This document shows, one piece after another, positions 22,048 through 41,317 of a stretch of DNA of 64,000 nt. The stretch is taken from positions 1,387 to 65,386 of the forward strand of contig JBAWXN010000001.1 in the NCBI GenBank assembly GCA_037144045.1, read 5' to 3'. The stretch comes from a bacterium. GTDB lineage: Bacteria > Patescibacteriota > Minisyncoccia > Phycocordibacterales > UBA1006. Position numbers and translations under genes: made by a program. Within the stretch, counting starts at the first letter, position 1, and each line of letters starts with the position of its first letter. The notes beneath the pieces are model-generated. The model had not been told where the DNA came from. It worked only from the letters and a program-made list of their open reading frames with translations, and searched no databases.

Positions 22048-24198
22048 ATGAACCGAGATTACCCATTGGAAAAGACACGAAACTTTGGAGTTATTGCCCA
22101 CATCGATGCGGGTAAAACAACTACTTCAGAACGTATTTTGTTCTACACCGGAATGTCCCACAAAATTGGAGAAGTGCATGAAGGTGCAGCAACCATGGAC
22201 TGGATGGAACAAGAAAAAGAACGAGGAATTACTATTACGTCAGCAGCGACGACTTGTTTTTGGACGCCTACTTATGTGGCAGACAAAAAAGACACTGCTA
22301 AAAAATTCCGATTTAACGTAATCGATACCCCAGGTCACATCGACTTTACTATTGAAGTACGACGATCACTCCGCGTGCTCGACGGTGCTCTCGTAGTATT
22401 CGACGGAGTAGCTGGAGTAGAACCTCAATCAGAAACTAACTGGCGTTATGCCGATGAAGGAAAAGTTCCTCGCATTTGTTTCATTAACAAACTCGACCGA
22501 ACAGGAGCTTCATTTGAACGTTCATACGCATCTATTCTTGATCGTTTGACTAAAAGTGCGGTTCGATTCCAAATTCCAATTGGTGAAGAAGAAAAAATGG
22601 AAGGAGTAGTAGATCTTTTGAAAATGAAGGCGTACTATTTCGAAGGAAACATGGGAACTGATGTGATTGAAAAAGAAATCCCTGAAAATCTTAAAGCTGA
22701 TGCTGAAAAGTATCATGCAATCCTCGTTGAAAAAATCGTTGAACACGATGAAACTATGATGATGGAATTCCTTGATGGGAAAACAGATTTCGATATTGAA
22801 GCTCTTAAAAAAGTAGCTCGAAAAGCAACCATTGCGAACGATATTGTTCCTGTATTTGCAGGAACAGCGCTTAAAAATAAAGGGGTACAACTTGCACTCG
22901 ATGCGGTGGTAGATTATTTGCCAGCACCGACAGATTTGAAAGATAACAAAGGGGTTAATCCAGATACTGGAGCAGAAGAAACCCGAAAAGCATCAGATAA
23001 TGAACCGCTTTCTGCGCTTGCCTTTAAAATTGCAACGGACCCATTCGTAGGACAATTGGTATTCTTCCGTGTCTATTCAGGTACGCTTGAAGCAGGTTCA
23101 TATGTGTTAAACACTCGAACAGGTAACAAGGAACGTATTGGACGTATTTTGCGAATGCATGCCAACGAACGTGAAGAAGTGAAAAAGGTGTTTGCAGGGG
23201 AAATTGCTGCAGCAGTAGGACTTAAAGAAACTACTACTTCAGACACGCTCTGTGACCCAGCTCACCCAATCGTTCTCGAAGAAATCAAGATTCCAGAACC
23301 AGTAGTAAGTCTTAAGATTGAACCAAAAACAAAGGCAGACCAAGAAAAAATGGGTATGGCTTTGAACCGATTGGCAGCAGAAGACCCAACCTTCCGAGTA
23401 ACTACTGATCCTGAAACTGCAGATACTATTATCTGGGGAATGGGAGAACTTCACTTGGATATTATTGTGGATCGTATGAAGCGAGAATTTACCGTTGAAG
23501 CAAACGTGGGACGACCACAAGTAGCTTACAAGGAAACCATTACGGGAACTGCTGAAGTGGATAACAAATATGTTAAACAATCAGGAGGTAAAGGACAGTA
23601 CGGTCATGTTAAAATCCGTATCAAGCCTATGGACCTTACGGTAGATCCAGCTGATCTTCCTAAGAACACGAAGCGTTCAGAAGGATTTGAATTCATCAAC
23701 AACATTAAAGGAGGGGTTATTCCACAAGAATTTATCGCTCCTGTTGAAAAGGGATTGAAAGAAGGAATGCAGCGAGGTGTCCTTGCTGGATACCAAATGG
23801 TAAACATTTCAGCGGACTTGTTTGATGGGTCATACCACGATGTAGACTCAAGTGAAATTGCCTTTAAGGTTGCAGCGTCACAAGCAATGCAAGAAGCGCT
23901 TGCGAAAGCGTCTCCGGTTATCCTTGAACCGATGATGAAAGTTGAAGTAACCATCCCAGAAAAATTCTTGGGAGATATTACCGGAAACGTATCATCTAAA
24001 CGTGGAATGATTGAAGGGGTAGACGATCGAGGAATGGTGAAAGCGGTTCGTGCGATTATGCCACTTTCAGAAATGTTCGGATATATGAACTCACTTCGAT
24101 CAATGACCGAAGGACGAGGATCATTCACTATGGAATTTACCCGTTATGACATCGTTCCTAAGAACGTTGCTGACGAAATTATTTCAAAGCGAAAATAA
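22048..24198 (+). CDS. fusA: elongation factor G
   Basis: [20 protein letters not shown]...DTPGHIDF...NKLDR G-domain plus full-length EF-G domains II-V. Confidence 0.95.
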
Positions 24199-24268
24199 TC
24201 CTGCCTCGCGTAAAGCTACGCAGGACACAAAATTTCCCATTGGGGGATTTTTTGTTACACTTATAAAT

Positions 24269-26656
24269 ATGACATTTGGTCGGAAAACTCTTTTTTCTGT
24301 TATTACGATTCTTTCAATCATTGGATATGGTTTTGTAGTTTTTGCGGTGGCACCAGTTGGAGGATATACTCCTGCTCAAACATTAAATCCTGCATGTGCA
24401 CCAGGTGATATTGATTGTGTGGTTCAAATGGCGGTAGTCATTGGGTCTTCTGTGATAAGCGGAATGCCGAATCAGGTGCTCTATACTGATACGGATGGTA
24501 AGGTTTTTGGTGATTCACAATTTACTCGTGACTCGACAACAGGAAATACAATTATTGGTGTGGCAAATGGGGTAGTTGCTTCGAATATGAGTATTTTGAA
24601 TACAGGGAATGTGCTCACTTGGGACGCAGATGTGAATGATTCAATCACAGATGGACTCATTCAAGGAAATAACCTAAATGGAGTTGGGATAAAAGGAAGT
24701 GCATTGGCTCATAGCAATACATCAACTTTTGAGTCAGCATCTTTCTTTGCTGGAGACACTACTGCTGTTGGTGGTAATCCATATGAAGCAAGTATGGCTT
24801 ATGTTCTTCCAGGAGGAATCAACGGGGCTTTTGCATATACTGTTAATGAAGAAGGATTAAAAGCAGACTACTATGATAGTGTAGGAAATATCAAAAGTCA
24901 GATTCTTCAAGAGGCAACAGGAAACACTATTTTATGGGATGCGGATACTACAGATGATATACAAGACTTGTTTGCGCAAAACCAAAACATTGGAGGTTCA
25001 CCCTTCAAAGGAAATGGTATTGCCCATGTTAATACAGCTACAGGAGAAAATGTTTATTTAGGAATTGGTGACGCAAGTGGTGTTGGGCAACGTCCTTTTA
25101 CAGGAATCATTGGATATCAAAATGCTGGTGGTACTCTTTTAAATGCATTAAGAGTGGATGATAGAGGTGCTGTAATAAGTCATCGTGACAGTGTTGCGAA
25201 TACGCAAGGATTCATGACCACATTTGGAGGTGGGAACCTGTCAGTTTGGAAGGCTGACACAACTGACACGATAATTACAAAACTTGAACAGACACAAGAC
25301 ATATTAGGACTTGGTGCTTTCTCAGGATCGGCTCTCACTTGGCAAGATACAGGTACTCAAGTAACAGGACTGGTGGGTGCTGTTGATGGAACTGGAACTG
25401 GACTTTTCCCGGGAAGTACTATTATGGCAACAACTAATGATGCATCTCTTGCGTCAGCAAGCCTTTCTACAAATTATGATACGTTAAGCTTGCAAGCAAC
25501 ACTTATAGCAAATGTTGCTAATGGGCCTGGTGATACAGGATTTGAGTTTGATAGGACGCGGGGAATTATTCGACGTAGAGACTACGGAACAGGTTTTGAG
25601 TCAGCATTTGAAGTTAATGGAAATAATGCGATCGCAAAATATACACTTAACGGTACCAATGAATACCAGACACAACTGGGTGATGGTACGTTCGCATTCC
25701 TGAATACAACTACAAATGATAAGTATCTATCGCTGGATTCAGTGTCAGGAATCATGAAGATAGCGCCACCAACAGGAGGAGATTTCGAAGTTAATACACT
25801 TACAACGAACAAAGTCGCATTTACAGTAATTCCTGATAACTTCTATGTGAAAATGGGAGATGGTGATAATGTTGCAAATCATACGTCATTGACAGTAGAC
25901 GACGCTTCACAAGCAATTACATTTGGTTATACTGGAAGTAGTTATACTTTCCCAGTTGGTGACGGTACTACTAACTACCTTCTTGCAACGGATGGCACAG
26001 GACAACTTTTCTGGCAAGATCCAACGATGGTCCCATCGGATCGATCACTCAAATCAAACATAGGTGGATTGTCGTATGGACTTGATACGTTAATGCAATT
26101 AAATCCAGTGTCTTATACCATGAATTCAAGTGGTAAAGAACAAATTGGATTCATTGCCCAAGAAGTAGAATCGTTAGTGCCAGAGCTGGTAGGGGAAGTT
26201 GCAAATGGTAAGAAAGGATTAGCCTACGGACAGATGACAGCAGTGATTGTAAAATCAGTTCAGCAGCTCAATTTGAAAATAGTCAACATTGAAAACTTTG
26301 CTGACGCTGAAAACAAAACATTCTTGAATAATTTGATTGCGTGGTTAGGTAGTGCAGCTAACGGTCTCGGAAAATTATTTGCCGGTGAAGTAGAAACAAA
26401 AAAACTTTGTATTGCTGACGATACAGGGAGTACTACGTGTATTACTAAATCACAGTTAGACGAATTTCTTACTCATCAAAATAATAGTCCAGGATCGAGT
26501 GTTGCACCTATTCCGCCTTTGGATAATCAGGGTGACAACTCGATACCAGTTCCAGGTCCAGATTTAGTATCTGATTCAGTACCAGAAACAGGACCAGGTC
26601 CACTACCTGTCGCACCAGATCCAATATCTGATCCGGTAATTGAAGAGGTTAATTAA
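24269..26656 (+). CDS. secreted fibre-like protein with a conserved N-terminal module and a C-terminal Peptidase_S74 / intramolecular chaperone (CIMCD-like) domain and Pro-rich tail
   Basis: Signal peptide ...IGYGFVVFA|VAPVGGYTPAQTLNPACAPGDIDCVV. C-terminal DRSLKSNIGGLSYGLDTLMQLNPVSYTMNSSGKEQIGFIAQEVESLVPELV (Ser/Lys dyad context) then WLGSAANGLGKLFAG..KKLCIADDTGSTTCITKSQLDEFL. Start chosen at ATG 24269; the ORF-track start 24146 overlaps the fusA 3' end. Confidence 0.7.
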   Translation: MTFGRKTLFSVITILSIIGYGFVVFAVAPVGGYTPAQTLNPACAPGDIDCVVQMAVVIGSSVISGMPNQVLYTDTDGKVFGDSQFTRDSTTGNTIIGVANGVVASNMSILNTGNVLTWDADVNDSITDGLIQGNNLNGVGIKGSALAHSNTSTFESASFFAGDTTAVGGNPYEASMAYVLPGGINGAFAYTVNEEGLKADYYDSVGNIKSQILQEATGNTILWDADTTDDIQDLFAQNQNIGGSPFKGNGIAHVNTATGENVYLGIGDASGVGQRPFTGIIGYQNAGGTLLNALRVDDRGAVISHRDSVANTQGFMTTFGGGNLSVWKADTTDTIITKLEQTQDILGLGAFSGSALTWQDTGTQVTGLVGAVDGTGTGLFPGSTIMATTNDASLASASLSTNYDTLSLQATLIANVANGPGDTGFEFDRTRGIIRRRDYGTGFESAFEVNGNNAIAKYTLNGTNEYQTQLGDGTFAFLNTTTNDKYLSLDSVSGIMKIAPPTGGDFEVNTLTTNKVAFTVIPDNFYVKMGDGDNVANHTSLTVDDASQAITFGYTGSSYTFPVGDGTTNYLLATDGTGQLFWQDPTMVPSDRSLKSNIGGLSYGLDTLMQLNPVSYTMNSSGKEQIGFIAQEVESLVPELVGEVANGKKGLAYGQMTAVIVKSVQQLNLKIVNIENFADAENKTFLNNLIAWLGSAANGLGKLFAGEVETKKLCIADDTGSTTCITKSQLDEFLTHQNNSPGSSVAPIPPLDNQGDNSIPVPGPDLVSDSVPETGPGPLPVAPDPISDPVIEEVN

Positions 26657-26739: not shown

Positions 26740-28272
26740 GTGAAAATTCTAAAAAACAAAAAATTAGCAGTCGCAATGAGTATTGCATCTGTAATCGGTT
26801 ATGGAACACTTGCTTTTGCAGTTGCGCCAGTAGGGGGATACATTCCAGGTCAAACCCTTAATCCTACGTGTACTCCTGGAAGTACAGACTGTTCAGTTGC
26901 ATCAGCGTGGAGTATTGATACGGTGAATGAACTAATTAGTAATAATTTTAATAACATAACCATAGCGGGAAATACAGAGTTACTTGGAAACACAACATCC
27001 CTGAATGAATTTTCAGGCTCACGCTTTGGCATAATTCAAAATGGACCCAGCACAACTCTTGGAACAAGTGCTTTTGAGAACGGGCTTAACTTACGTTTTA
27101 TTGACGATCAGAAATCAGCTGGTATTTTTATGGGTGATTTAAGTGGACTCCTTCCTGGTAATACGAATACTATTTATATAAATAATACTAACGATGCTAC
27201 CGGTGATTCTGCATATGCATTTTTTAATGCAGATGGTAGTCTCATGCTCGCAGCCCAAGATGCAAACAAGCATTCAAATATTAATGTTTTTAAACAAGGT
27301 TTCAGACTTCGTCATGCAGGTGGTCCGGATAGTAGTCCAACGGGTGATTGGCATTCCCGAATAGATATAGAAGACAATCGAGTGCTAAGTACGTTTCAGA
27401 GAGGTGGTGGTACTGATCCAGGAGTAACACTCACTACTTGGACAGAGACACAATTAGATGAAAACGGGTTTGCTATAAAAGGAATTGATGATAGTGGCCT
27501 CAATCAAGCGTTTTTAGTTAAAAATAACACTGGATTACAAGCGTTGCGTGTCATGAACGATGGTGCGGTACGTATCGGAGCCCTTGCTGGAGGCATCTGC
27601 CCACTCGAGGTAGATGTGACGGGTACTATTATTTGTAGTACTCCTTCCGATGCAAATCTTAAGCATGATATTACTGATTTATCCTATGGACTTGATACTA
27701 TTATGAAACTGCGACCGGTTTCGTATCAGTATAACGATGCAAAATACGGATCAGGAAACCAGATTGGTTTCGTGGCTCAAGAAGTTCAAGAAGTTATTCC
27801 GGAAGTAGTATTCAGAAGTCAGGGACACTTGGGAATTAACTATGCATTACTTACATCAGTTAACACAAAGGCGATTCAAGAACTTGAACTAAGGCTCACA
27901 GCTCTCGAAGGGGTTGCACAGTCAGTTAACAGTTCAGGACTCTCGCTGATTCGTAATTGGTTAGCAGATGCAACCAATGGAATTACAGAAATTATTGCTG
28001 GAAAAATATCTACTCATGAATTATGTATAGATGGACAATGTCTCACAAAAGACGATGTGCAGCAATTACTCATATTAAAAAATCAATTACAGAATACCGA
28101 ATCCATCCCTCCGAGTAGTGCCAGTACTCCAGTAGAAACCCCAAGTCCTGCTGATGTGCTGCCAGAGGTGGTACTAACTACCGAAAGTTCAACCGAAATA
28201 ACACCAGACGAGGGAGTAACTCCCGATGCTACACCAGAAACAGGTACGAGCAGTGATACGGTAGCGAATTAA
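26740..28272 (+). CDS. paralogous secreted fibre-like protein with the same N-terminal module and a C-terminal Peptidase_S74 chaperone domain
   Basis: ...IGYGTLAFA|VAPVGGYIPGQTLNPTCTPGSTDCSV. C-terminal SDANLKHDITDLSYGLDTIMKLRPVSYQYNDAKYGSGNQIGFVAQEVQEVIPEVV then NWLADATNGITEIIAG...CIDGQCLTKDDVQQL and a Pro/Thr-rich tail. Confidence 0.7.
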   Translation: MKILKNKKLAVAMSIASVIGYGTLAFAVAPVGGYIPGQTLNPTCTPGSTDCSVASAWSIDTVNELISNNFNNITIAGNTELLGNTTSLNEFSGSRFGIIQNGPSTTLGTSAFENGLNLRFIDDQKSAGIFMGDLSGLLPGNTNTIYINNTNDATGDSAYAFFNADGSLMLAAQDANKHSNINVFKQGFRLRHAGGPDSSPTGDWHSRIDIEDNRVLSTFQRGGGTDPGVTLTTWTETQLDENGFAIKGIDDSGLNQAFLVKNNTGLQALRVMNDGAVRIGALAGGICPLEVDVTGTIICSTPSDANLKHDITDLSYGLDTIMKLRPVSYQYNDAKYGSGNQIGFVAQEVQEVIPEVVFRSQGHLGINYALLTSVNTKAIQELELRLTALEGVAQSVNSSGLSLIRNWLADATNGITEIIAGKISTHELCIDGQCLTKDDVQQLLILKNQLQNTESIPPSSASTPVETPSPADVLPEVVLTTESSTEITPDEGVTPDATPETGTSSDTVAN

Positions 28273-29687: not shown

Positions 29688-29708
29688 ACCGCTCGGCGGT
29701 TTTTTTAT
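29688..29708. terminator. bidirectional intrinsic terminator between convergent genes (accgc-tcg-gcggt, A-run / T-run)
   Basis: GC hairpin flanked by AAATAAA and TTTTTTT. Confidence 0.6.
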
Positions 29709-30343
29709 TAATTGGCTAATGTCCATGCAATGACGCGCTGTGCTCCTGCTTTAATAAGGACGTGGCGTGCTTCGCTAAGAGTAGATCCGGTAGTTACAAT
29801 ATCATCAACAAGGATAATATTTTTACCTTGAATGAGATGCTGATGGTCTATAGAAAACGAACCAGTTATATTTTGGGCGCGTTCCTCGCGTGATCGTGCA
29901 GTACCTTGTTTCTTGGTATGGTGTGTTTTCACTAATACTGAAGTGAGTAGTTGAATGGTGAACTGGCGCGACATGGCATAAGCAATAAGCTCTGACTGAT
30001 TAAAGCCTCGCTGTCGAAACCTGGTTGGTGCAATGGGAATAGGAATAATAACCCATAAGTCTGGATTACGGGGTCTATTTAGAATTCGATCTGAAAAGAG
30101 CTTTGCACAATAGTGCGCAATACGGTCGTTCGGCATGGATTTAATGTGTCGGAGCACGATTTCTGCGTGAGGATCTCTGTAATTCCAAAAACTCGTAATC
30201 CATTTCTTTTTTTGATACTTGGGCCACGTGAAGGTATGGCTACATGATGTGCAAATATCTGACCCATACGTTCCGCAGAGTAAGCAAGAAACAGGGAATA
30301 GTTGATTAAAAAACCATGAACAGACAGTAATAATAGTGCTCAT
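29708..30343 (-). CDS. comFC: ComF-family competence protein (zinc-ribbon plus phosphoribosyltransferase domain)
   Basis: N-terminal CLLCG...CTSCSH zinc ribbon; C-terminal PRTase motif IILVDDIVTTGSTLSEA. Confidence 0.8.
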   Translation of the reverse strand: MSTIITVCSWFFNQLFPVSCLLCGTYGSDICTSCSHTFTWPKYQKKKWITSFWNYRDPHAEIVLRHIKSMPNDRIAHYCAKLFSDRILNRPRNPDLWVIIPIPIAPTRFRQRGFNQSELIAYAMSRQFTIQLLTSVLVKTHHTKKQGTARSREERAQNITGSFSIDHQHLIQGKNIILVDDIVTTGSTLSEARHVLIKAGAQRVIAWTLAN

Positions 30344-32757: not shown

Positions 32758-33207
32758 ATGAAATCAAAATCATCAACATTCATATTGATCGTAGTCATCC
32801 TCCTTGTGGTAGGTGGTTTGGTGTACTTCTTTGTGATAAAAGGTGATTCGGGTAGTACAGCGCCTAAGACTGGACTTGTTTCTACAAACACAGGAAAGGC
32901 GACTGGTATAGCGGTTGCAACCACTGGTGGTGGAACGGGTGATCAAGTAGTGTCATTGCTCCGTAACTTGTCAGTTATTCAGCTCAGTGATGCTATTTTC
33001 CAAAATCCATCATTTAGTATGTTGCAAGATATTAGTATTACGCTTCCTCCGGTAACGAACCAAGGACGTAGAAATCCATTTGCAGTAGTAAGTGGAGACA
33101 ATGCGGCACTACCCGTAACGACAGGTACTGCTTCAGTCTCTGGTACTCCTGCGGTAATTACGCCAAGTACTGGTTCAAGTGCTTCAGGTACTCCAGCAGT
33201 TCAATAA
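32758..33207 (+). CDS. membrane-anchored Thr/Gly/Ser-rich hypothetical protein (possible PilP-like accessory)
   Basis: N-terminal TM helix, low-complexity TGTASVSGTP tail; position only. Confidence 0.4.
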   Translation: MKSKSSTFILIVVILLVVGGLVYFFVIKGDSGSTAPKTGLVSTNTGKATGIAVATTGGGTGDQVVSLLRNLSVIQLSDAIFQNPSFSMLQDISITLPPVTNQGRRNPFAVVSGDNAALPVTTGTASVSGTPAVITPSTGSSASGTPAVQ

Positions 33208-33240
33208 ATCCTCCTTGGGGGATTTTCTTGTTTTTATTCT
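33208..33240 (+). terminator. intrinsic terminator (atcctcc...gggggat + T-rich)
   Basis: hairpin plus TTTTCTTGTTTTT. Confidence 0.45.
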
Positions 33241-33261
33241 AAATGGGTTTATACTATAGGC

Positions 33262-33408
33262 ATGACACAAGAAGAAATGGAATTATTAGCTGCAAAAGTT
33301 GCAGATGGAACCGCAACTGATGAGGAAGAACTCGCCTTTTATCAGGAATTAAATAAGGAAGCCGACGAATTATTAGCCTTAGCAGAAGACATGCCTGATC
33401 AAGAATAA
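33262..33408 (+). CDS. small acidic protein (48 aa), copy 1 of a duplicated module
   Basis: MTQEEMELLAAKVADGTATDEEELAFYQELNKEADELLALAEDMPDQE; paralog of 33758..33922; not in the ORF track because it is under 60 aa. Confidence 0.45.
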   Translation: MTQEEMELLAAKVADGTATDEEELAFYQELNKEADELLALAEDMPDQE

Positions 33409-33412
33409 TTAT

Positions 33413-33742
33413 ATGAAAACTCCAGATAATAGAGCTCCGTCTTCACCAGACAAGTCAAAAACTAAACCAAAGCCAAAGCAAGAAGCGGCACCGGGTCCTG
33501 CTAAAAAAATTGAATCACCAGCCGTAAAAGCAGAAAAGGAAAAATTTGAGAAAAAATCTGAAACCCTTAAAAAGACAGTGGAGAAAAAGGGTGGCGTTTC
33601 TAAGTTTGTCGAAGAAAACAGTACTGGAATTGCCAGTGGTGGATTATTTCTTCTTGGATTGCTCACAGGAGCACTCCCGTTTATGTTTTTAGGTGGATGG
33701 TTATTTCACCAAGATTCAAAGTCTAAAGAAAAGAAGGGTTAA
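33413..33742 (+). CDS. basic Lys-rich protein with a C-terminal TM helix (109 aa), copy 1
   Basis: KKGGVSKFVEEN then TM GIASGGLFLLGLLTGALPFMFLGGWLF; paralog of 33924..34289. Confidence 0.5.
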   Translation: MKTPDNRAPSSPDKSKTKPKPKQEAAPGPAKKIESPAVKAEKEKFEKKSETLKKTVEKKGGVSKFVEENSTGIASGGLFLLGLLTGALPFMFLGGWLFHQDSKSKEKKG

Positions 33743-33757
33743 TATTTATATAATACT

Positions 33758-33922
33758 ATGTCTGAAGAACGCATGAAGCTTCTGCTGGAAAAGGCAGATA
33801 CTGGGATCATTTCACCCGAAGAAGAACTAGAGCTTCTTGAAGAACTCAATAAGGGGCTCGAAGCATTACAAAAAATAGTTGACCAAATGCCAGATGCAGA
33901 ACCTGGTGCGGTCATTGAATAA
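33758..33922 (+). CDS. small acidic protein (54 aa), copy 2
   Basis: MSEERMKLLLEKADTGIISPEEELELLEELNKGLEALQKIVDQMPDAEPGAVIE; shares M(S/T).EEM.LL..KA....(P/D)EEEL....ELNK...........MPD.E with copy 1. Confidence 0.45.
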   Translation: MSEERMKLLLEKADTGIISPEEELELLEELNKGLEALQKIVDQMPDAEPGAVIE

Positions 33923-33923
33923 T

Positions 33924-34289
33924 ATGGGATTTGAAAACTTTTTTGGGAAAAAGAAAAACAGTAATGAAACCAAAGAGACTATTTGGGATAAGATAGAAAA
34001 AGAGCGAAATAGATATCGCGAGAATGTTTCGAGACTAAAAGATTCTGTTAAGAAAAAAGGAGGTTGGGGCAAAGTTTTTAGTGACAAGATGAGACAAGGG
34101 TATGATTTTTATGCTGAAAAAGTAGCACCTTATGTATATGTTAGTGCTGCTACGATTACGCTTGCCTTGATTATAAGTGGCGCCCCGGTTATGGCTTGGA
34201 TGCCTTATTCAATCATTAATAGTGGTAATTATTTAATACATAGTGGTTGGGAAAAAAGAAATGAAGAGTCGCAACAAAAAGCTGCTTAA
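33924..34289 (+). CDS. basic protein with a TM helix (121 aa), copy 2
   Basis: MGFENFFGKKKN...KKKGGWGKVFSDK then TM VYVSAATITLALIISGAPVMAWM; start at ATG 33924 directly after the stop of 33758..33922 (the ORF-track start 33879 overlaps the upstream gene). Confidence 0.5.
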   Translation: MGFENFFGKKKNSNETKETIWDKIEKERNRYRENVSRLKDSVKKKGGWGKVFSDKMRQGYDFYAEKVAPYVYVSAATITLALIISGAPVMAWMPYSIINSGNYLIHSGWEKRNEESQQKAA

Positions 34290-34324
34290 CTCCTGGAGCA
34301 TACTAAGGAGTGAGCGGTTTTTTG
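34290..34324 (+). terminator. intrinsic terminator (ctcct...aggag, gagcgg + TTTTTT)
   Basis: hairpin followed by T6. Confidence 0.45.
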
Positions 34325-34354
34325 TATGCAAAAGAAAATCGTGTGATACAATAA

Positions 34355-36097
34355 GTGCATATGCAATTTCTAGAACAATTGGTAAAAATGGGAACCATTA
34401 ATCGCTACCAAATGGAAGACATTTTGGAAAAGGCGAAATCAATGAACGGGGACTTGGATAAGGCAATTGAAGCCGAAGGAATTCCGAGTGATGTGGTTCG
34501 CCAAGCTAAAGGTGAATTTTACGGTGTCGCAGAACGAGTAATTAATTTTCAAGACGTGTCGTTAGATGCCTTGAAATATATTCCTGAAGACGCATCGGCT
34601 AACTACCGCATTGTTCCTATTGGAATAAAAAATGGAGTCCTTGAAATTGGAATGCTTGATCCAGGTGATGTTGCTGCAGTAGGGGCGCTCCAGTTTATTT
34701 CCTCAAAAATTAAAATGCCGATCGAGAAATTCGTAATATCCTATGATGACTACAAGAAAGCAGTTGAAGGATATCATGGGGTGAGTGATTTCGTAGAAGA
34801 AGACTCAGGTAACAGAAGTGCAATGGCTGATGAAATCCTTGACGTGCCTAACGATGAAATAGACGAAAACGCAGGAGTAAACAAAGACGGTTCAATCACA
34901 GAAGACGCCCCAGCAACTAAAATGATTGGGGTAATTGTTAAAAATGCTATCGATGGGGGAGCTTCAGATATTCATATCGAACATATTGGAACCGAAGTAC
35001 GGGTTCGGTATCGTGTAGATGGAATTTTGCATACGTCACTGCGTCCTAATAAGTCATTTCACGGAGCATTAGTTGCTAAGATTAAGACCCTTACTGGAAC
35101 GATGAAACTCGATGAAAAACGTAAACCACAAGACGGTCGATTCGTAGCAGTGGTAGACAAGGGAACAGGACGAGAACGTAAGGTAGATTTTCGTGTATCT
35201 ACAATGCCAACATTCTACGGCGAAAAGGTGGTGATTCGTATTTTGGATCCAGAACGAGGAGTAAAAACACTTGAAGACGTAGGACTATCACCAGAGCACC
35301 TTGCCTTAGTACGAGACGTTATTAAACGTCCGCACGGACTCATCCTCATGACAGGACCTACTGGGGAAGGTAAATCAACGACGTTGTACGCAATGATTAA
35401 AGAAATCGATCGTGAAGGACTCAATGTGGTATCACTCGAAGACCCGATCGAATATAACATTCCAGGAATGAGTCAATCACAAGTGAAGCCTGAAATTGGA
35501 TATGATTTCGCTACAGGACTTCGTAGTATTTTGCGACAGGACCCTGATGTAATTATGGTAGGGGAAATTCGTGATAAGGAAACGGCAAAGCTCGCTATTC
35601 AAGCCGCACTTACGGGTCACTTGGTATTTGCCACACTCCACACCAATAGTGCGATTGGGGCAGTGCCTCGTTTGATTGATATGGGAGTGGATCCTTACTT
35701 GATTGCGCCGACATTGCTTATGTCTATGGCACAGCGATTGGTTCAGAAGCTCATTCCAAATACTGGAAAAGCAGTACCAGTAGATGGTTCAATTGCTGAA
35801 ATGATTGGAAAAGAATTCGGTGATTTGCCGCAACAATTCCTTGAACAGCTTCCGATTACTAATACCGTGTATGAAGCACAGCGTTCGGAAGGTTCTGAAT
35901 CAGGTATGCATGGACGTATGCCTGTTGCAGAAATGTTTGTTGTTGATAAAGACATTCAAAATATTATTTTGACCAACCCAGTAGAAAACGCTATTTACGA
36001 ATATGCGCGTAATAAAGGATTCTTGACCATGAAAGACGATGCCGTACTTAAATGTATGGCAGGTAAAATCCCTTGGGATGAAGTAAACACTTTGTAG
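34355..36097 (+). CDS. pilB: type IV pilus assembly ATPase PilB (GspE family)
   Basis: GspE N-domain, GASDIHIE, Walker A GPTGEGKST, Walker B/Asp box, His box. Confidence 0.9.
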   Translation: MHMQFLEQLVKMGTINRYQMEDILEKAKSMNGDLDKAIEAEGIPSDVVRQAKGEFYGVAERVINFQDVSLDALKYIPEDASANYRIVPIGIKNGVLEIGMLDPGDVAAVGALQFISSKIKMPIEKFVISYDDYKKAVEGYHGVSDFVEEDSGNRSAMADEILDVPNDEIDENAGVNKDGSITEDAPATKMIGVIVKNAIDGGASDIHIEHIGTEVRVRYRVDGILHTSLRPNKSFHGALVAKIKTLTGTMKLDEKRKPQDGRFVAVVDKGTGRERKVDFRVSTMPTFYGEKVVIRILDPERGVKTLEDVGLSPEHLALVRDVIKRPHGLILMTGPTGEGKSTTLYAMIKEIDREGLNVVSLEDPIEYNIPGMSQSQVKPEIGYDFATGLRSILRQDPDVIMVGEIRDKETAKLAIQAALTGHLVFATLHTNSAIGAVPRLIDMGVDPYLIAPTLLMSMAQRLVQKLIPNTGKAVPVDGSIAEMIGKEFGDLPQQFLEQLPITNTVYEAQRSEGSESGMHGRMPVAEMFVVDKDIQNIILTNPVENAIYEYARNKGFLTMKDDAVLKCMAGKIPWDEVNTL

Positions 36098-38486: not shown

Positions 38487-38930
38487 ATGAAAAAAAATAT
38501 CTTACAAAAAGGATTTACATTGATCGAACTCCTCGTGGTAGTAGCTATTATTGCTATCCTCTCAGGAACGATCTTGGTAGCGCTTAACAGTGCTCGTGCA
38601 AAAGCGAAAGACGCGCGTATTCAAGCAGAATTGCAACAATTGAAATCGCAAATGGAATTGTATTACACGAGTAATAATAATGGGTATGGATCAGCAACAG
38701 ACTGTACTTCTGGTACCGGTAATCCATTTACTTCTACAGGTGGGACGAACAACGCAGCTACTTTAATTACAGGTCTCGAAATAGATAATGGGTCTGCTTC
38801 ACTAAGTTGTCAAGCAAGCTCAGCTAGTTGGGCTGTTTCATCTCCGTTATCATCAGCAAGTTCAACTTGGTGCGTAGATTCAAATGGAAAATCAAATACA
38901 GGTACCGCTACTGGAGGTTCATGTATCTAA
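38487..38930 (+). CDS. type IV major pilin paralog 1 (class III signal peptide)
   Basis: MKKNILQKG|FTLIELLVVVAIIAILSG... prepilin leader, cleavage after Gly, Glu+5; C-terminal Cys pair. Confidence 0.85.
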   Translation: MKKNILQKGFTLIELLVVVAIIAILSGTILVALNSARAKAKDARIQAELQQLKSQMELYYTSNNNGYGSATDCTSGTGNPFTSTGGTNNAATLITGLEIDNGSASLSCQASSASWAVSSPLSSASSTWCVDSNGKSNTGTATGGSCI

Positions 38931-38985
38931 ACAACTAACTGCTTCGGCGGTTTTTGTTTTAGATAAAACGGGTTATACTACGGTT

Positions 38986-39471
38986 ATGAAAAAAATCTCG
39001 GCAGGGTTTACCTTAATTGAATTACTGGTAGTGGTTGCAATTATTGCGATATTATCAGGAACAATACTGGTTGCTCTGAACAGTGCTCGTACAAAAGCAA
39101 AAGAAGCACGTATTCAAGCTGAAATGCAGCAATTAAAATCACAAATGGAGCTCTACTACACAACAAATGGTGGTTATGGTTCAACCAGTGGGGATTGTAC
39201 GACAGGTGCTTTTGCAAACGGTACTGATAATCCTTCAACGCTTATTAATGGCCTTACTCTAGATATTTGTGGAGCGCTAGGATACTGCAATAAATTAGCT
39301 TGTTATTCAGGTACTGATTGGTGGGTAACTGCGGTGCAAATGCCTAGTGGTTCAACTACGTGGTGTGCGGATTCTAATGGAGCTTCAAAACCTGGAGTAG
39401 ATTCCAATGGAGCACCAAGCGCATCACCATTGTGGGTAATTTCAAACACTCCTAATAAATACTGCTGGTAG
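38986..39471 (+). CDS. type IV major pilin paralog 2
   Basis: MKKISAG|FTLIELLVVVAIIAILSGTILVALNSARTKAKEARIQ...; start at ATG 38986 (the ORF-track start 38884 overlaps pilin 1). Confidence 0.85.
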   Translation: MKKISAGFTLIELLVVVAIIAILSGTILVALNSARTKAKEARIQAEMQQLKSQMELYYTTNGGYGSTSGDCTTGAFANGTDNPSTLINGLTLDICGALGYCNKLACYSGTDWWVTAVQMPSGSTTWCADSNGASKPGVDSNGAPSASPLWVISNTPNKYCW

Positions 39472-39503
39472 CAGTTTTTTTAGTGACTTGGTATACTACA
39501 TAC

Positions 39504-40004
39504 ATGAAAAAAGCCTCAGGATTTACATTGATCGAGCTCCTCGTGGTAGTAGCTATTATTGCTATTCTCTCAGGAACGATCTTGGTAGCACTGAACAGTG
39601 CTCGTGCAAAAGCGAAAGACGCGCGTATTCAATCCCAGTTACAACAAATAAAAGCTCAAGCAGAACTCTATTATACGAACCATGGCAATGCGTATTCAAC
39701 CTACTGGTCAACCTTCACCGGAAACACGGAATCGTTATGTGGAACAGCTGGATATGGGGTGTTTGATGCAACTGATCCGGATTCATCATTTAGGCTTTTG
39801 AAAGACGCAGTCTATGAATACGATGGGCAATGGAATGGTGGTGCTGGGTGGTGTTTCCTAGGCGCAGGAGGGGAAAGTTGGATGGCGCTTGCCGCATTAC
39901 ATTCAGGGGGATATTGGTGCGTAGATTCCAATGGGTCTTCTAAAAATTTTACAGGAAATCCTTGGTCTATTACCTATACTGGGGGTCAAATAAATTGTCC
40001 TTAA
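39504..40004 (+). CDS. type IV major pilin paralog 3
   Basis: MKKASG|FTLIELLVVVAIIAILSGTILVALNSARAKAKDARIQ...; N-terminal 110 nt are about 96 percent identical to paralog 1. Confidence 0.85.
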   Translation: MKKASGFTLIELLVVVAIIAILSGTILVALNSARAKAKDARIQSQLQQIKAQAELYYTNHGNAYSTYWSTFTGNTESLCGTAGYGVFDATDPDSSFRLLKDAVYEYDGQWNGGAGWCFLGAGGESWMALAALHSGGYWCVDSNGSSKNFTGNPWSITYTGGQINCP

Positions 40005-40010
40005 TACATT

Positions 40011-40562
40011 ATGAAAAAAAATAACTTACAAAAAAATAGTGGATTTACCGTACTAGAACTCCTGGTTATTTTAGGAATTATTACTATTTTAATCGGATTA
40101 GTACTTACTGGTTTAAATGCGGCACGAAAACATTCAAACGATGAACGAAAAGTAGCGACCCTTAAGACGGTAGCCCTTGGACTCCGTGAATACTTTAACA
40201 TTTGTCGTGCCTATCCAGTAACCATGGCAGCTAATGAAGCGTGTCCCGCACTTGCAAACCAGGTACCGGCTCGACAATTGAGCGACGTGATTCCTGGAAT
40301 TGTTGGCCTTGATATAAACGGTGCGACTTCAAAATATCATTATGTAAGTCTAGTTGATACGACCTCAAATGGACAAGGCGCTACCGACTGTACCAATTTC
40401 CATGTATGGGTTGACCTTGATGCGGATGGAGCTTCTCTTGCAGCTCAAAAAAGTAACAAGACATCAGCAGATTACGCAACGCTTGGACTCGTTCAGTGTT
40501 CAGGTAATACCGTGGTACCACTTGCAACTCAAGACAACACGGTGTATGACATCTTAAAGTAA
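40011..40562 (+). CDS. type IV pilin-like protein (divergent fourth pilin)
   Basis: MKKNNLQKNSG|FTVLELLVILGIITILIG... prepilin motif. Confidence 0.8.
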   Translation: MKKNNLQKNSGFTVLELLVILGIITILIGLVLTGLNAARKHSNDERKVATLKTVALGLREYFNICRAYPVTMAANEACPALANQVPARQLSDVIPGIVGLDINGATSKYHYVSLVDTTSNGQGATDCTNFHVWVDLDADGASLAAQKSNKTSADYATLGLVQCSGNTVVPLATQDNTVYDILK

Positions 40563-40570
40563 TTACTATT

Positions 40571-41317
40571 ATGAATATTCTTATTACTATTCTCGCAGGA
40601 ATCCTCGGCCTTATTATTGGTAGTTTTTTAAATGTGGTTATTTTACGAATGAATACAGGGCGAGGACTCGGCGGGCGATCAAAATGTTTTTCATGTAATA
40701 AAACACTTGCGTGGTATGAATTACTACCGGTAGTAAGCTATCTTGTTCAAGGTGGGAAATGTCGAAATTGTAAAACACCTATTTCAAAGCAGTATGCGTT
40801 AGTTGAAGGAGTAACGGCACTGCTATTCGCCGGGGTTGCAGCACAAATGAATGTATTGACACAACCAATAACGGTGTTGTTGTGGTTAGTGCTTGTTTCG
40901 CTAGGAATGATTATTGCGGTTTACGATATTCGTCATTATGTAATTCCTGAAATGCCACTCATTTTATTTTTAGGTACTACGATTGCTATTGGATTTCATG
41001 GGATTGCTTTTCTGCTGGTTCCATTACCATTTTTGTTGTTATGGGTTGTTTCAAGGGGTGCTTGGATTGGTTTTGGAGATATAGAACTTATGGCATGCGC
41101 TGGAATGTTGCTTGGGATTACAGGAGGAATTGCAGCAGTAGTAAGTTCTTTTTGGATTGCGTGTATCGTGATCCTTCCCTGGTATGCACTCCAAAAATTA
41201 CGAAAGAAAAACGTATCGCACAAAGTTCCGTTTGGTCCATTTCTCTTGGCGGGAATGTATTTAGTGGGAATCTTTGGAATAAATGTTTTAACAATGATAA
41301 TGGGTATGGTAAAATAA
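40571..41317 (+). CDS. pilD: prepilin peptidase / N-methyltransferase (A24 family)
   Basis: CFSCNKTLAWYELLPVVSYLVQGGKCRNCKTPIS zinc motif, multi-TM, conserved Asp residues. Confidence 0.88.
   Translation: MNILITILAGILGLIIGSFLNVVILRMNTGRGLGGRSKCFSCNKTLAWYELLPVVSYLVQGGKCRNCKTPISKQYALVEGVTALLFAGVAAQMNVLTQPITVLLWLVLVSLGMIIAVYDIRHYVIPEMPLILFLGTTIAIGFHGIAFLLVPLPFLLLWVVSRGAWIGFGDIELMACAGMLLGITGGIAAVVSSFWIACIVILPWYALQKLRKKNVSHKVPFGPFLLAGMYLVGIFGINVLTMIMGMVK

Follow-up and report, generated by a model that had tools for sequence, protein, structure and literature searches.

The window analyzed here, a 64,000-nucleotide stretch of contig JBAWXN010000001.1, contains four same-strand open reading frames (ORFs) that fill positions 33262–34289 and are named pep1, TM1, pep2, and TM2. 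They form two modules, each composed of a gene for a small acidic protein (the peptide) followed by a gene for a small membrane protein (the partner), located between pilMNO-like genes and pilB. We lean towards the interpretation that each module is a copy of a conserved, obligate, Patescibacteria-specific cassette, found in Saccharibacteria and their relatives, which would make a membrane-tethered helical adaptor or regulator complex and would not be intrinsically a pilus component. The analysis established the coding status of the genes, their pairing, family membership and duplication history, the fold of the peptide, and the co-variation of charge between peptide and partner. The host bacterium is Saccharibacteria-like; the S7 protein encoded in the window is 76% identical to S7 of a Candidatus Saccharibacteria metagenome-assembled genome (MAG).

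The four ORFs are conserved genes that form two diverged modules

The four ORFs listed in the initial annotation of this DNA were all present at the positions given there, and the same ORFs, with unchanged lengths, were found in relatives from public assemblies. Codon-level comparison with relatives (dS ~0.2–2) gave dN/dS values of 0.02–0.18 for pep1 (against four relatives), 0.03–0.28 for TM1, 0.04–0.12 for pep2, and 0.10–0.28 for TM2. All four ORFs are protein-coding and under strong purifying selection, and the constraint is strongest on the two peptides. The initial annotation had named spuriousness of the small ORFs as the outcome that would undo it; conservation in relatives and low dN/dS show that these ORFs are real.

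The first peptide gene, pep1 (33262–33408, + strand), encodes a 48-aa acidic protein with a net charge of −14, which is of the derived paralog type and matches the peptide-family hidden Markov model (HMM) with an E-value of 1e-21. It had been described as missing from the ORF track, which has to be corrected, as the NCBI annotation of the MAG lists pep1 as WCG20_00175 and all four ORFs as hypothetical proteins (WCG20_00175 to WCG20_00190). The second peptide gene, pep2 (33758–33922, + strand), encodes a 54-aa acidic protein of the canonical family type with a net charge of −10. The two peptides align to each other without gaps, with 20 of 48 residues identical (42%; pairwise E 2e-5), which agrees with the alignment proposed earlier.

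The partner of pep1, TM1 (33413–33742, + strand), is a Lys-rich protein of 109 aa and a divergent member of the partner family. Its Lys/Pro-rich N-terminus leads into a helix and the KKGG motif, after which comes a hydrophobic stretch of 29 aa (~residues 70–98) that is kinked at GALP. The partner of pep2, TM2 (33924–34289, + strand), has 121 aa. It starts with MGFENFFGKKK and continues through a heptad helix (residues 20–44), a GG pair (residues 46–47), and another helix to a hydrophobic hairpin that turns at SGAP. Its C-terminal region contains Trp and mixed charges (W-E-K-R-N-E-E), and the net charge after the start of the transmembrane (TM) part is 0. The mechanically called ORF for TM2 begins at TTG 33879. 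The supported start is ATG 33924, because MGFENFFGKKK is invariant in the orthologs, where the following 10 residues vary, and because the family members begin alike; the initial annotation had chosen the same start. Similar spurious N-terminal extensions from GTG, TTG, or ATG codons, overlapping the upstream gene, were seen in P0003 (L005, 4143–4373), P0007, and P0009, as well as at 33879 in the window, and the true starts of such over-extended small genes were set by family alignments.

TM1 and TM2 showed no similarity to each other in a BLAST comparison. Both carry the motif KKGG(V/W)(S/G)K(F/V), as had been pointed out from the letters alone, and a partner HMM built without TM1-type sequences picked out TM1 (E 1.6e-6) from ~4000 ORFs and gave no false matches. 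Comparison of TM1 with the partner family by hhalign gave 87% probability (E 4e-6) over the helix and the GG motif. The module is thus duplicated as a whole, the peptides being 42% identical and TM1 and TM2 being linked by profile (E ~1e-6), as the initial annotation had held.

The peptide and its partner occur as an obligate pair

An exhaustive profile search with the peptide returned 48 cluster representatives at E<1e-3, nearly all of them 42–99 aa long. P0025, which contains DUF2680 repeats, and P0033 were rejected as family members, since they are cross-matches of the hairpin motif in other proteins, and the family was taken as ~46 clusters. Its members share the consensus MTxEExxxLAEKVxxGTATPEEELxLLxELNKG, to which a tail of variable sequence is added; residues 1–33 are the best conserved, and the C-terminus varies.

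Every locus with readable downstream sequence has a same-strand partner gene 1–25 nt 3′ of the peptide gene. These partner genes encode proteins of 107–317 aa with no Pfam annotation. The matches of the partner HMM likewise all lie directly 3′ of a peptide gene where upstream sequence exists, with no orphans or chance matches (the contig of L012 begins at the partner gene). Partners typically start with an M-x-F-x-N-F-F..K-K motif, which is followed by an amphipathic helix ending in GG and a second helix. Their membrane part consists of either two hydrophobic segments or one stretch of 29–39 aa with a central G-A-x-P turn, and the C-terminal tail contains Trp and is mostly basic. Even the most divergent peptide, P0073, is accompanied by a partner of this layout. 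Within the family, pep2/TM2 is the canonical type and pep1/TM1 is a derived paralog.

The loci with the cassette differ in their surroundings. A pilus locus is the context in the window clade, L017/18, and L026, whereas the cassette follows rpsL-rpsG in L021 and L027, stands in the order secY-adk-[cassette]-map in L015/16 and L022/23, and lies between ABC-transporter genes in L013/14. Miscellaneous contexts with HicA, Fic-like, or caspase-like neighbors were found in L019, L024, L028, L029, and L030. Named host organisms are Saccharibacteria or Patescibacteria. Tracing the peptide motif through relatives and recording its neighbors, as the initial annotation had proposed, gave a conserved peptide that is paired in every locus read and has varied neighborhoods. 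Pattern scans, with strict confirmation against one 54-aa query, yielded one locus in genome contigs and four in metagenome contigs, and no relatives of the family were found in viral contigs, phage genomes, or plasmids. A 910-aa DUF87/TraG-like ATPase, resembling type IV secretion coupling proteins, is encoded ~2 kb downstream of the secY-adk-linked cassette (L015, 8447–11179; L016, 8558–11290).

Duplication, loss, and the relation to the pilus locus

In the window, the cassette is flanked as the initial annotation had described. Upstream Pfam matches are PilM_2 (E 7e-34), PilN (4.8e-5), and PilO (1.5e-9), followed by a 149-aa TM protein; downstream are PilB (T2SSE, 2.6e-111, and MshEN), PilT, PilC (T2SSF), several pilins, and a prepilin peptidase. 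The four proteins themselves gave no match to pilus families, although their neighbors match PilM_2, PilN, PilO, T2SSE, and T2SSF.

The relatives, ordered by PilB and PilO identity as (((window, L005), (L009, L010)), L001), L017, carry 2, 1, 2, 2, 1, and 2 modules, respectively. L017, with PilB 85% and PilO 74% identical to those of the window, already has a module of each type, pep1 and pep2. Two modules are therefore the ancestral state, and the duplication is ancient; a recent tandem duplication is not supported. The pep1-type partner of L017 (4908–5732) is expanded to 274 aa by a long charged Lys/Glu coiled coil and an N-terminal GKGKGKGKGR repeat, and it retains the GG motif and the GALP hydrophobic hairpin.

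Two relatives that have retained the pilus genes lack module 2, namely L005, whose PilB is 99.7% identical to that of the window, and L001; it was deleted in them independently. The deletion in L005 removed ~33760–34318, which is exactly module 2, and joined the TM1 stop to the terminator. Comparison of L005 4708–4745 with window 33743–34330 places the breakpoint within the terminator hairpin, with the GCGGTTTTTT half kept in both forms.

These findings bear on the proposal, made in the initial annotation, that the module is a pilus-associated pair. In its explicit form, the partner would bind the pilus platform, the acidic hairpin would act as a switch, and N-F-F-G-K-K would mimic the PilN peptide that inserts into PilM. 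The canonical N-terminal motif of PilN is of the N-L-L-P-K type, which the N-F-F-G-K-K of TM2 resembles. TM2 shares with PilN a membrane anchor, a short conserved cytoplasmic N-terminal peptide, and a gene beside pilM/pilB. In the clade of the window, both the PilN N-terminus, MENQFTTTFIPKKP, and the MGFENFFGKKK of TM2 are invariant, the latter while the next 10 residues vary, and PilN's initial eight residues bind a groove of PilM (PMC6325625). The position between the pilMNO-149aa genes and pilB is conserved from the window to L017 despite the PilB and PilO divergence given above, and a C-terminal hydrophobic-P-D motif is present in both pilus-linked paralogs and absent from the non-pilus members.

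Nevertheless, we regard a pilus-dedicated accessory pair as unlikely. The same pair occurs after rpsG, after secY-adk, and between ABC-transporter genes in other Patescibacteria, so that most other lineages sampled have non-pilus contexts, and near-identical strains have lost module 2 with all their pil genes still in place. Unlike PilN, the partners have neither a PilN Pfam match nor a periplasmic domain, a genuine PilN is encoded upstream, TM1 lacks the N-terminal motif, and the apparent resemblance of TM2 to the PilN motif spans five residues. The descriptions of the TM7x pilus loci list no such genes (PMC11623550), and our searches of the literature on Saccharibacteria pili and transposon sequencing (Tn-seq) brought up no mention of them. 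A pilus-dedicated role is thus possible for the clade of the window and is not supported as the general function of the family. If the cassette is unrelated to pili, it is a warning against annotating small genes by operon position in compact genomes.

A more specific variant, which we consider improbable, is a Patescibacteria-specific membrane-tethered switch for an actin-like pilus or division scaffold, in which the N-F-F-(G/P)-K-K peptide of the partner would take the place of PilN in the PilM groove and the charge-matched hairpin would gate it. Such a switch would add a new layer of control to pilus assembly, and thus to host attachment and DNA uptake, in episymbiotic ultra-small bacteria.

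Predicted structures and charge co-variation

The AlphaFold2 model of pep2, computed from a 32-sequence alignment, has a pLDDT of 90 and shows two helices (residues 3–15 and 20–43) with a turn between them and a disordered tail. The amphipathic pattern of these helices is conserved in the peptide family, in which G16 is conserved and E22 is invariant. The predicted structure of TM2 (pLDDT 57) has helices at residues 20–44, 48–67, 73–84, 87–91, and 95–120, which suggests a helix-GG-helix unit followed by hydrophobic helices.

With the peptide seen as a folded and conserved protein, it is very improbable that the small ORFs are regulatory leader peptides (upstream ORFs controlling the downstream membrane gene) or spurious. 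They are very short and end 1–4 nt before the next gene, as leader peptides might, but conservation covers all 33 N-terminal residues, which make up an amphipathic helical hairpin, and it is the C-terminus that varies, unlike an arrest motif. The confident fold, dN/dS values of 0.02–0.12, and a family of ~46 clusters speak against leader peptides as well.

The initial annotation had drawn attention to the complementary charges of the peptides and their partners in the window, and this complementarity extends to the family as an inverse co-variation. The net charge of the peptide was negatively correlated with the charge of the partner before its TM part (r=−0.89, n=14). Reducing the set to a single pair for each orthologous group left the correlation unchanged (r=−0.89, p=5e-4, n=10), and it was retained without the pairs of the window (r=−0.82). 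Its strongest component was found between the distal helix and tail of the peptide and the helix-GG segment of the partner (r=−0.88, p=7e-4). In L019 the polarity is reversed, with a basic peptide (net +2) and an acidic partner, and L030 appears by eye to be charge-reversed in the same way. A genome-wide composition effect would give a positive correlation, the opposite of the one seen.

The obligate adjacency, the conserved hydrophobic faces, the heptad pattern in the partner helix, and the charge co-variation together fit a physical complex, and the two products, a soluble protein and a membrane anchor, probably interact. In the mechanism that we propose, the first gene would yield a ~50-aa cytoplasmic helix-turn-helix hairpin in which a G-T-x-T-P-E-E-E capping turn joins a short helix 1 to a long helix 2; the distal half and tail of helix 2 are variable and usually acidic. 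The second gene, 1–25 nt downstream on the same mRNA lacking a Shine-Dalgarno sequence, would be translated into a small membrane protein. Its cytoplasmic N-terminal part would comprise the aromatic/Lys motif, the amphipathic heptad helix, the GG turn, and the second helix, and it would be tethered by a C-terminal hydrophobic hairpin or two TM segments. The peptide may dock on the cytoplasmic helix-GG region of the partner through the hydrophobic faces and complementary charge, and the resulting membrane-tethered helical complex may act as an adaptor or regulator. In the clade of the window, two diverged copies would have come to stand between the pilMNO operon and pilB through the ancient duplication, as a transcription unit separate from both.

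Several points weigh against this mechanism. The correlation is exploratory, with 10–14 pairs that are incompletely independent phylogenetically and four sub-tests behind the regional analysis. In every pair the two charges add up to a negative value, and the pattern is therefore not one of simple neutralization. The partner model is of low confidence, its pLDDT of 57 resting on a 4-sequence alignment. About 10 independent genomic contexts were sampled, with a bias to long contigs, and homology yields no function for either family. The peptide–partner complex, its topology, and any cellular role are inferred from the patterns described above.

Comparison with known families

The window proteins and 46 peptide and 14 partner members were scanned against Pfam, NCBIfam, PHROGs, and PADLOC, which gave only sub-threshold or compositional matches. 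Searches of PDB sequences returned only look-alikes of the hairpin motif and designed helix-GG-helix bundles. The match to T4_RIIA1, seen in 14 of the 46 peptide members (best E 8.7e-4), was rejected because it covers only 22–26 residues of the hairpin. The matches to Arg_decarbox_C, the BrxC helical domain, the LiaX N-terminus, and RAMP4 were likewise sub-threshold or compositional. One profile exceeded its cut-off: DUF2627 (PF11118) matched TM1 with 23.5 bits (cut-off 22.4; E 8e-5). This match covers residues 77–105 of TM1, which is the hydrophobic stretch only, and positions 40–68 of the 76 in the profile; it was seen in 2 of the 14 partners and is likely compositional.

The peptide look-alikes, namely a SHOCT-like domain, the LiaX N-terminus, the docking domain 5D2E, and YnzC, share the turn motif G-x-hydrophobic-T-x-E-E. 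Among them, YnzC of Bacillus subtilis (UPF0291/DUF896; PDB 3BHP, 2JVD, and 2HEP) appears to be the closest fold to the peptide, with scores that are not significant. It is a free-standing helix-turn-helix hairpin, as the peptide is predicted to be, and shares with it the longer turn L-x-x-K-x-x-x-G-x-hydrophobic-T-x-E-E. YnzC chains were the top four Foldseek matches to the pep2 model (probability 0.75–0.96, TM-score 0.5–0.7, rmsd 2–3 Å), at non-significant E-values of 0.23–1.1 for a kind of tiny helical hairpin that matches easily. By sequence profile, the PDB search gave E 0.03–0.05 and hhalign gave 59% over 22 columns, and DUF896 was not among the Pfam families matched by peptide members. 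Like the peptide, YnzC is encoded in an operon with a small membrane protein, YneA. It differs from the peptide in having a basic disordered tail and no adjacent hairpin-membrane partner, and we know of no function for it.

SHOCT domains are units of ~30 residues whose two amphipathic helices are joined by a turn that holds a conserved Gly; a Glu is conserved as well (PMC3581485). The peptide resembles them in its predicted helix-turn-helix, the conserved Gly (G16), and the conserved Glu (E22), but SHOCT is mostly a C-terminal appendage of larger proteins, whereas the peptide is free-standing and its helix 2 is longer (24 residues). SHOCT (PF09851) had no match in the peptide family, and SHOCT-like_DUF2089-C (PF22746) reached E 0.03–0.1 in 4 of the 46 members, with 12.7 bits against a cut-off of 27. 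The best PDB sequence-profile match was the N-terminal docking domain of the trans-AT polyketide synthase MlnE (5D2E; E 0.0045, residues 7–34, QIEQIVKKVKECSLTPEEGLELIKSLGK). Such a domain is a small helical hairpin used purely for protein–protein docking, which is how we propose that the peptide acts. This sub-threshold match, which is part of a 522-aa enzyme subunit with unrelated biology, would offer an analogy of mechanism only.

On the partner side, YqjD, ElaB, and YgaM are similar, as small proteins that are helical and cytoplasmic in their N-terminal part and anchored in the membrane at the C-terminus. YqjD-type proteins act via their N-terminus at the ribosomal tunnel (bioRxiv 10.1101/2024.08.16.608256). 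This resemblance raises the alternative of a ribosome- or translocon-associated membrane tether, akin to the C-tail-anchored YqjD/ElaB/YgaM hibernation factors, of which the small protein would be the regulator. The placement of the cassette inside translation or secretion operons in 4 of the ~10 independent contexts (L021, L027; L015/16, L022/23) is consistent with it, although operon position is weak evidence in compact genomes, and the cassette of the window is not beside rpsG-fusA. The YqjD-type proteins have a single tail anchor, whereas in most partners the membrane part is a pair of hydrophobic segments or a G-A-x-P hairpin, and the YqjD-type proteins lack an obligate small acidic partner. 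None of the partners matched DUF883, the family of YqjD, ElaB, and YgaM, or another family, and the RAMP4 match was noise (E 0.19). A ribosome tether of this kind therefore has a low probability.

The cassette could also be a toxin–antitoxin-like or conflict module, in which the hairpin membrane protein would be a membrane-damaging effector restrained by the small protein encoded upstream; we judge this to be quite unlikely. Such a module would have two tightly linked genes with the small neutralizer first, as here, and the complementary charges, the presence or absence of module 2 at the strain level, the two copies in one locus, and the varied contexts, which include HicA, a Fic-like protein, and caspase-like Peptidase_C14/TPR neighbors, fit it as well. 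Yet PADLOC and PHROGs gave only noise for toxin, antitoxin, or defense families, the cassette is absent from the viral, phage, and plasmid collections, and the peptide lacks a DNA-binding domain. Of the two components, the putative antitoxin is conserved better (dN/dS 0.02), which is the reverse of the usual behavior of toxin–antitoxin systems. The position is stable within the clade and lies inside ribosomal-protein operons in other lineages, and neither a compositional anomaly nor a compositional sign of recent transfer was found.

The initial annotation had also suggested an anti-sigma-like switch, which found no support. None of the four proteins has an anti-sigma or sigma match in Pfam or NCBIfam, the partner has no extracytoplasmic domain, no sigma-factor gene lies between 28000 and 40000, and the fold matches of RsiW and MucA to the pep2 model had probabilities of 0.2 or less.

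By these comparisons of profiles and models, the two protein families of the cassette form a pair that is undescribed and restricted to Patescibacteria, and neither of them is assignable to a described family or system. Its newness lies in this lack of a fitting family or system; no new mechanism is demonstrated. A large part of bacterial diversity falls within the Patescibacteria; their genomes are tiny, and most of the hypothetical genes conserved in them probably matter. The cassette can now be recognized by HMM signatures for both proteins and has a confident peptide fold, and a charge-matched complex at the membrane is a testable prediction. As Saccharibacteria are now genetically tractable, the cassette is a well-defined, testable target.

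Transcription signals and neighboring genes

The four genes of the cassette are separated by gaps of 4 nt (pep1/TM1), 15 nt (TM1/pep2), and 1 nt (pep2/TM2). The spacing of 1–4 nt had been taken as a hint of translational coupling, but such spacing without a Shine-Dalgarno sequence is the norm for the genes of the window. Gaps of 1–4 nt are common among them, so tight spacing is ordinary for this genome, and inspection of 43 gene starts in the window showed no Shine-Dalgarno sequence at the usual place, with two weak matches rich in A/G at −17 and −5.

An intrinsic-terminator-like hairpin with a T-run (33206–33225, + strand; 8 pairs in the scan, fold of −8.3 kcal/mol) lies directly 3′ of the gene for the 149-aa protein and marks the modules off from the pilMNO-149aa operon; L005, L009, and L010 have its equivalent. 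It is followed by a TATACT −10-like hexamer (33250–33255, + strand), 6 nt before the ATG of pep1. The arrangement of TATACT, 6 nt, and ATG is kept in L001, L005, L009, and L010, and a strict two-hexamer promoter scan did not call the site at 33250. The short distance to the ATG suggests a very short or absent 5′ leader. At the other end of the modules, a weak hairpin with GCGGTTTTTT (34290–34325, + strand) is what remains, or the right half, of the terminator found directly 3′ of TM1 in the single-module relatives; it folds weakly in the window (z −0.55) and strongly in L005 (−11.1 kcal/mol, z −2.6). The extended −10-like element TGTGATACAAT (34342–34352, + strand), which like TATACT was read from the letters, lies 8 nt before the conserved pilB ATG at 34361 and is identical in L001, L005, L009, and L010; it belongs to the context of pilB, outside the module. 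Together with the terminator-like hairpin, the conserved TATACT and TGTGATACAAT give the modules the look of a separate transcription unit, with a pilus operon on either side. An Rfam search found no RNA elements in the region.

Promoter-like −10 hexamers at a distance of 6–9 nt from an ATG were seen at 33250, 34347, ~43645, and ~54008. The near absence of Shine-Dalgarno sequences and the closeness of −10 hexamers to ATGs suggest that mRNAs that are leaderless or have a very short leader are common in this organism.

The 149-aa protein (32758–33207) has an N-terminal TM helix, the conserved block VSLLRNLSxIQLxDAxFQ...ITLPPVTNQGRRNPFA, and a Thr/Ser/Gly-rich tail. It occupies the place of PilP, is conserved through L017, and has no Pfam match. 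Divergent from pilM, a gene on the − strand (29708–30343) encodes a ComF-like phosphoribosyltransferase with a double zinc ribbon; its position beside pilM is consistent with a competence-linked pilus locus. Downstream, four tandem pilin-like genes (38487–40562) include at least three with near-identical N-terminal halves (FTLIELLVVVAIIAILSGTILVALNSARAKAKDARIQ...) and divergent C-terminal halves, and further N_methyl proteins are encoded after the prepilin peptidase (40571–41317).

Just upstream of the pilus locus, two adjacent genes (24146–26656 and 26740–28272) encode proteins of 836 and 510 aa, each with a Peptidase_S74 intramolecular-chaperone domain (E 1.7e-13 and 1.9e-18, respectively). 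This domain is known from phage tail-fiber and endosialidase proteins, and the two proteins are possibly surface fibers or adhesins. Five tRNA genes (Met, Asp, Met, Thr, and Thr) lie on both strands between 48127 and 50816.

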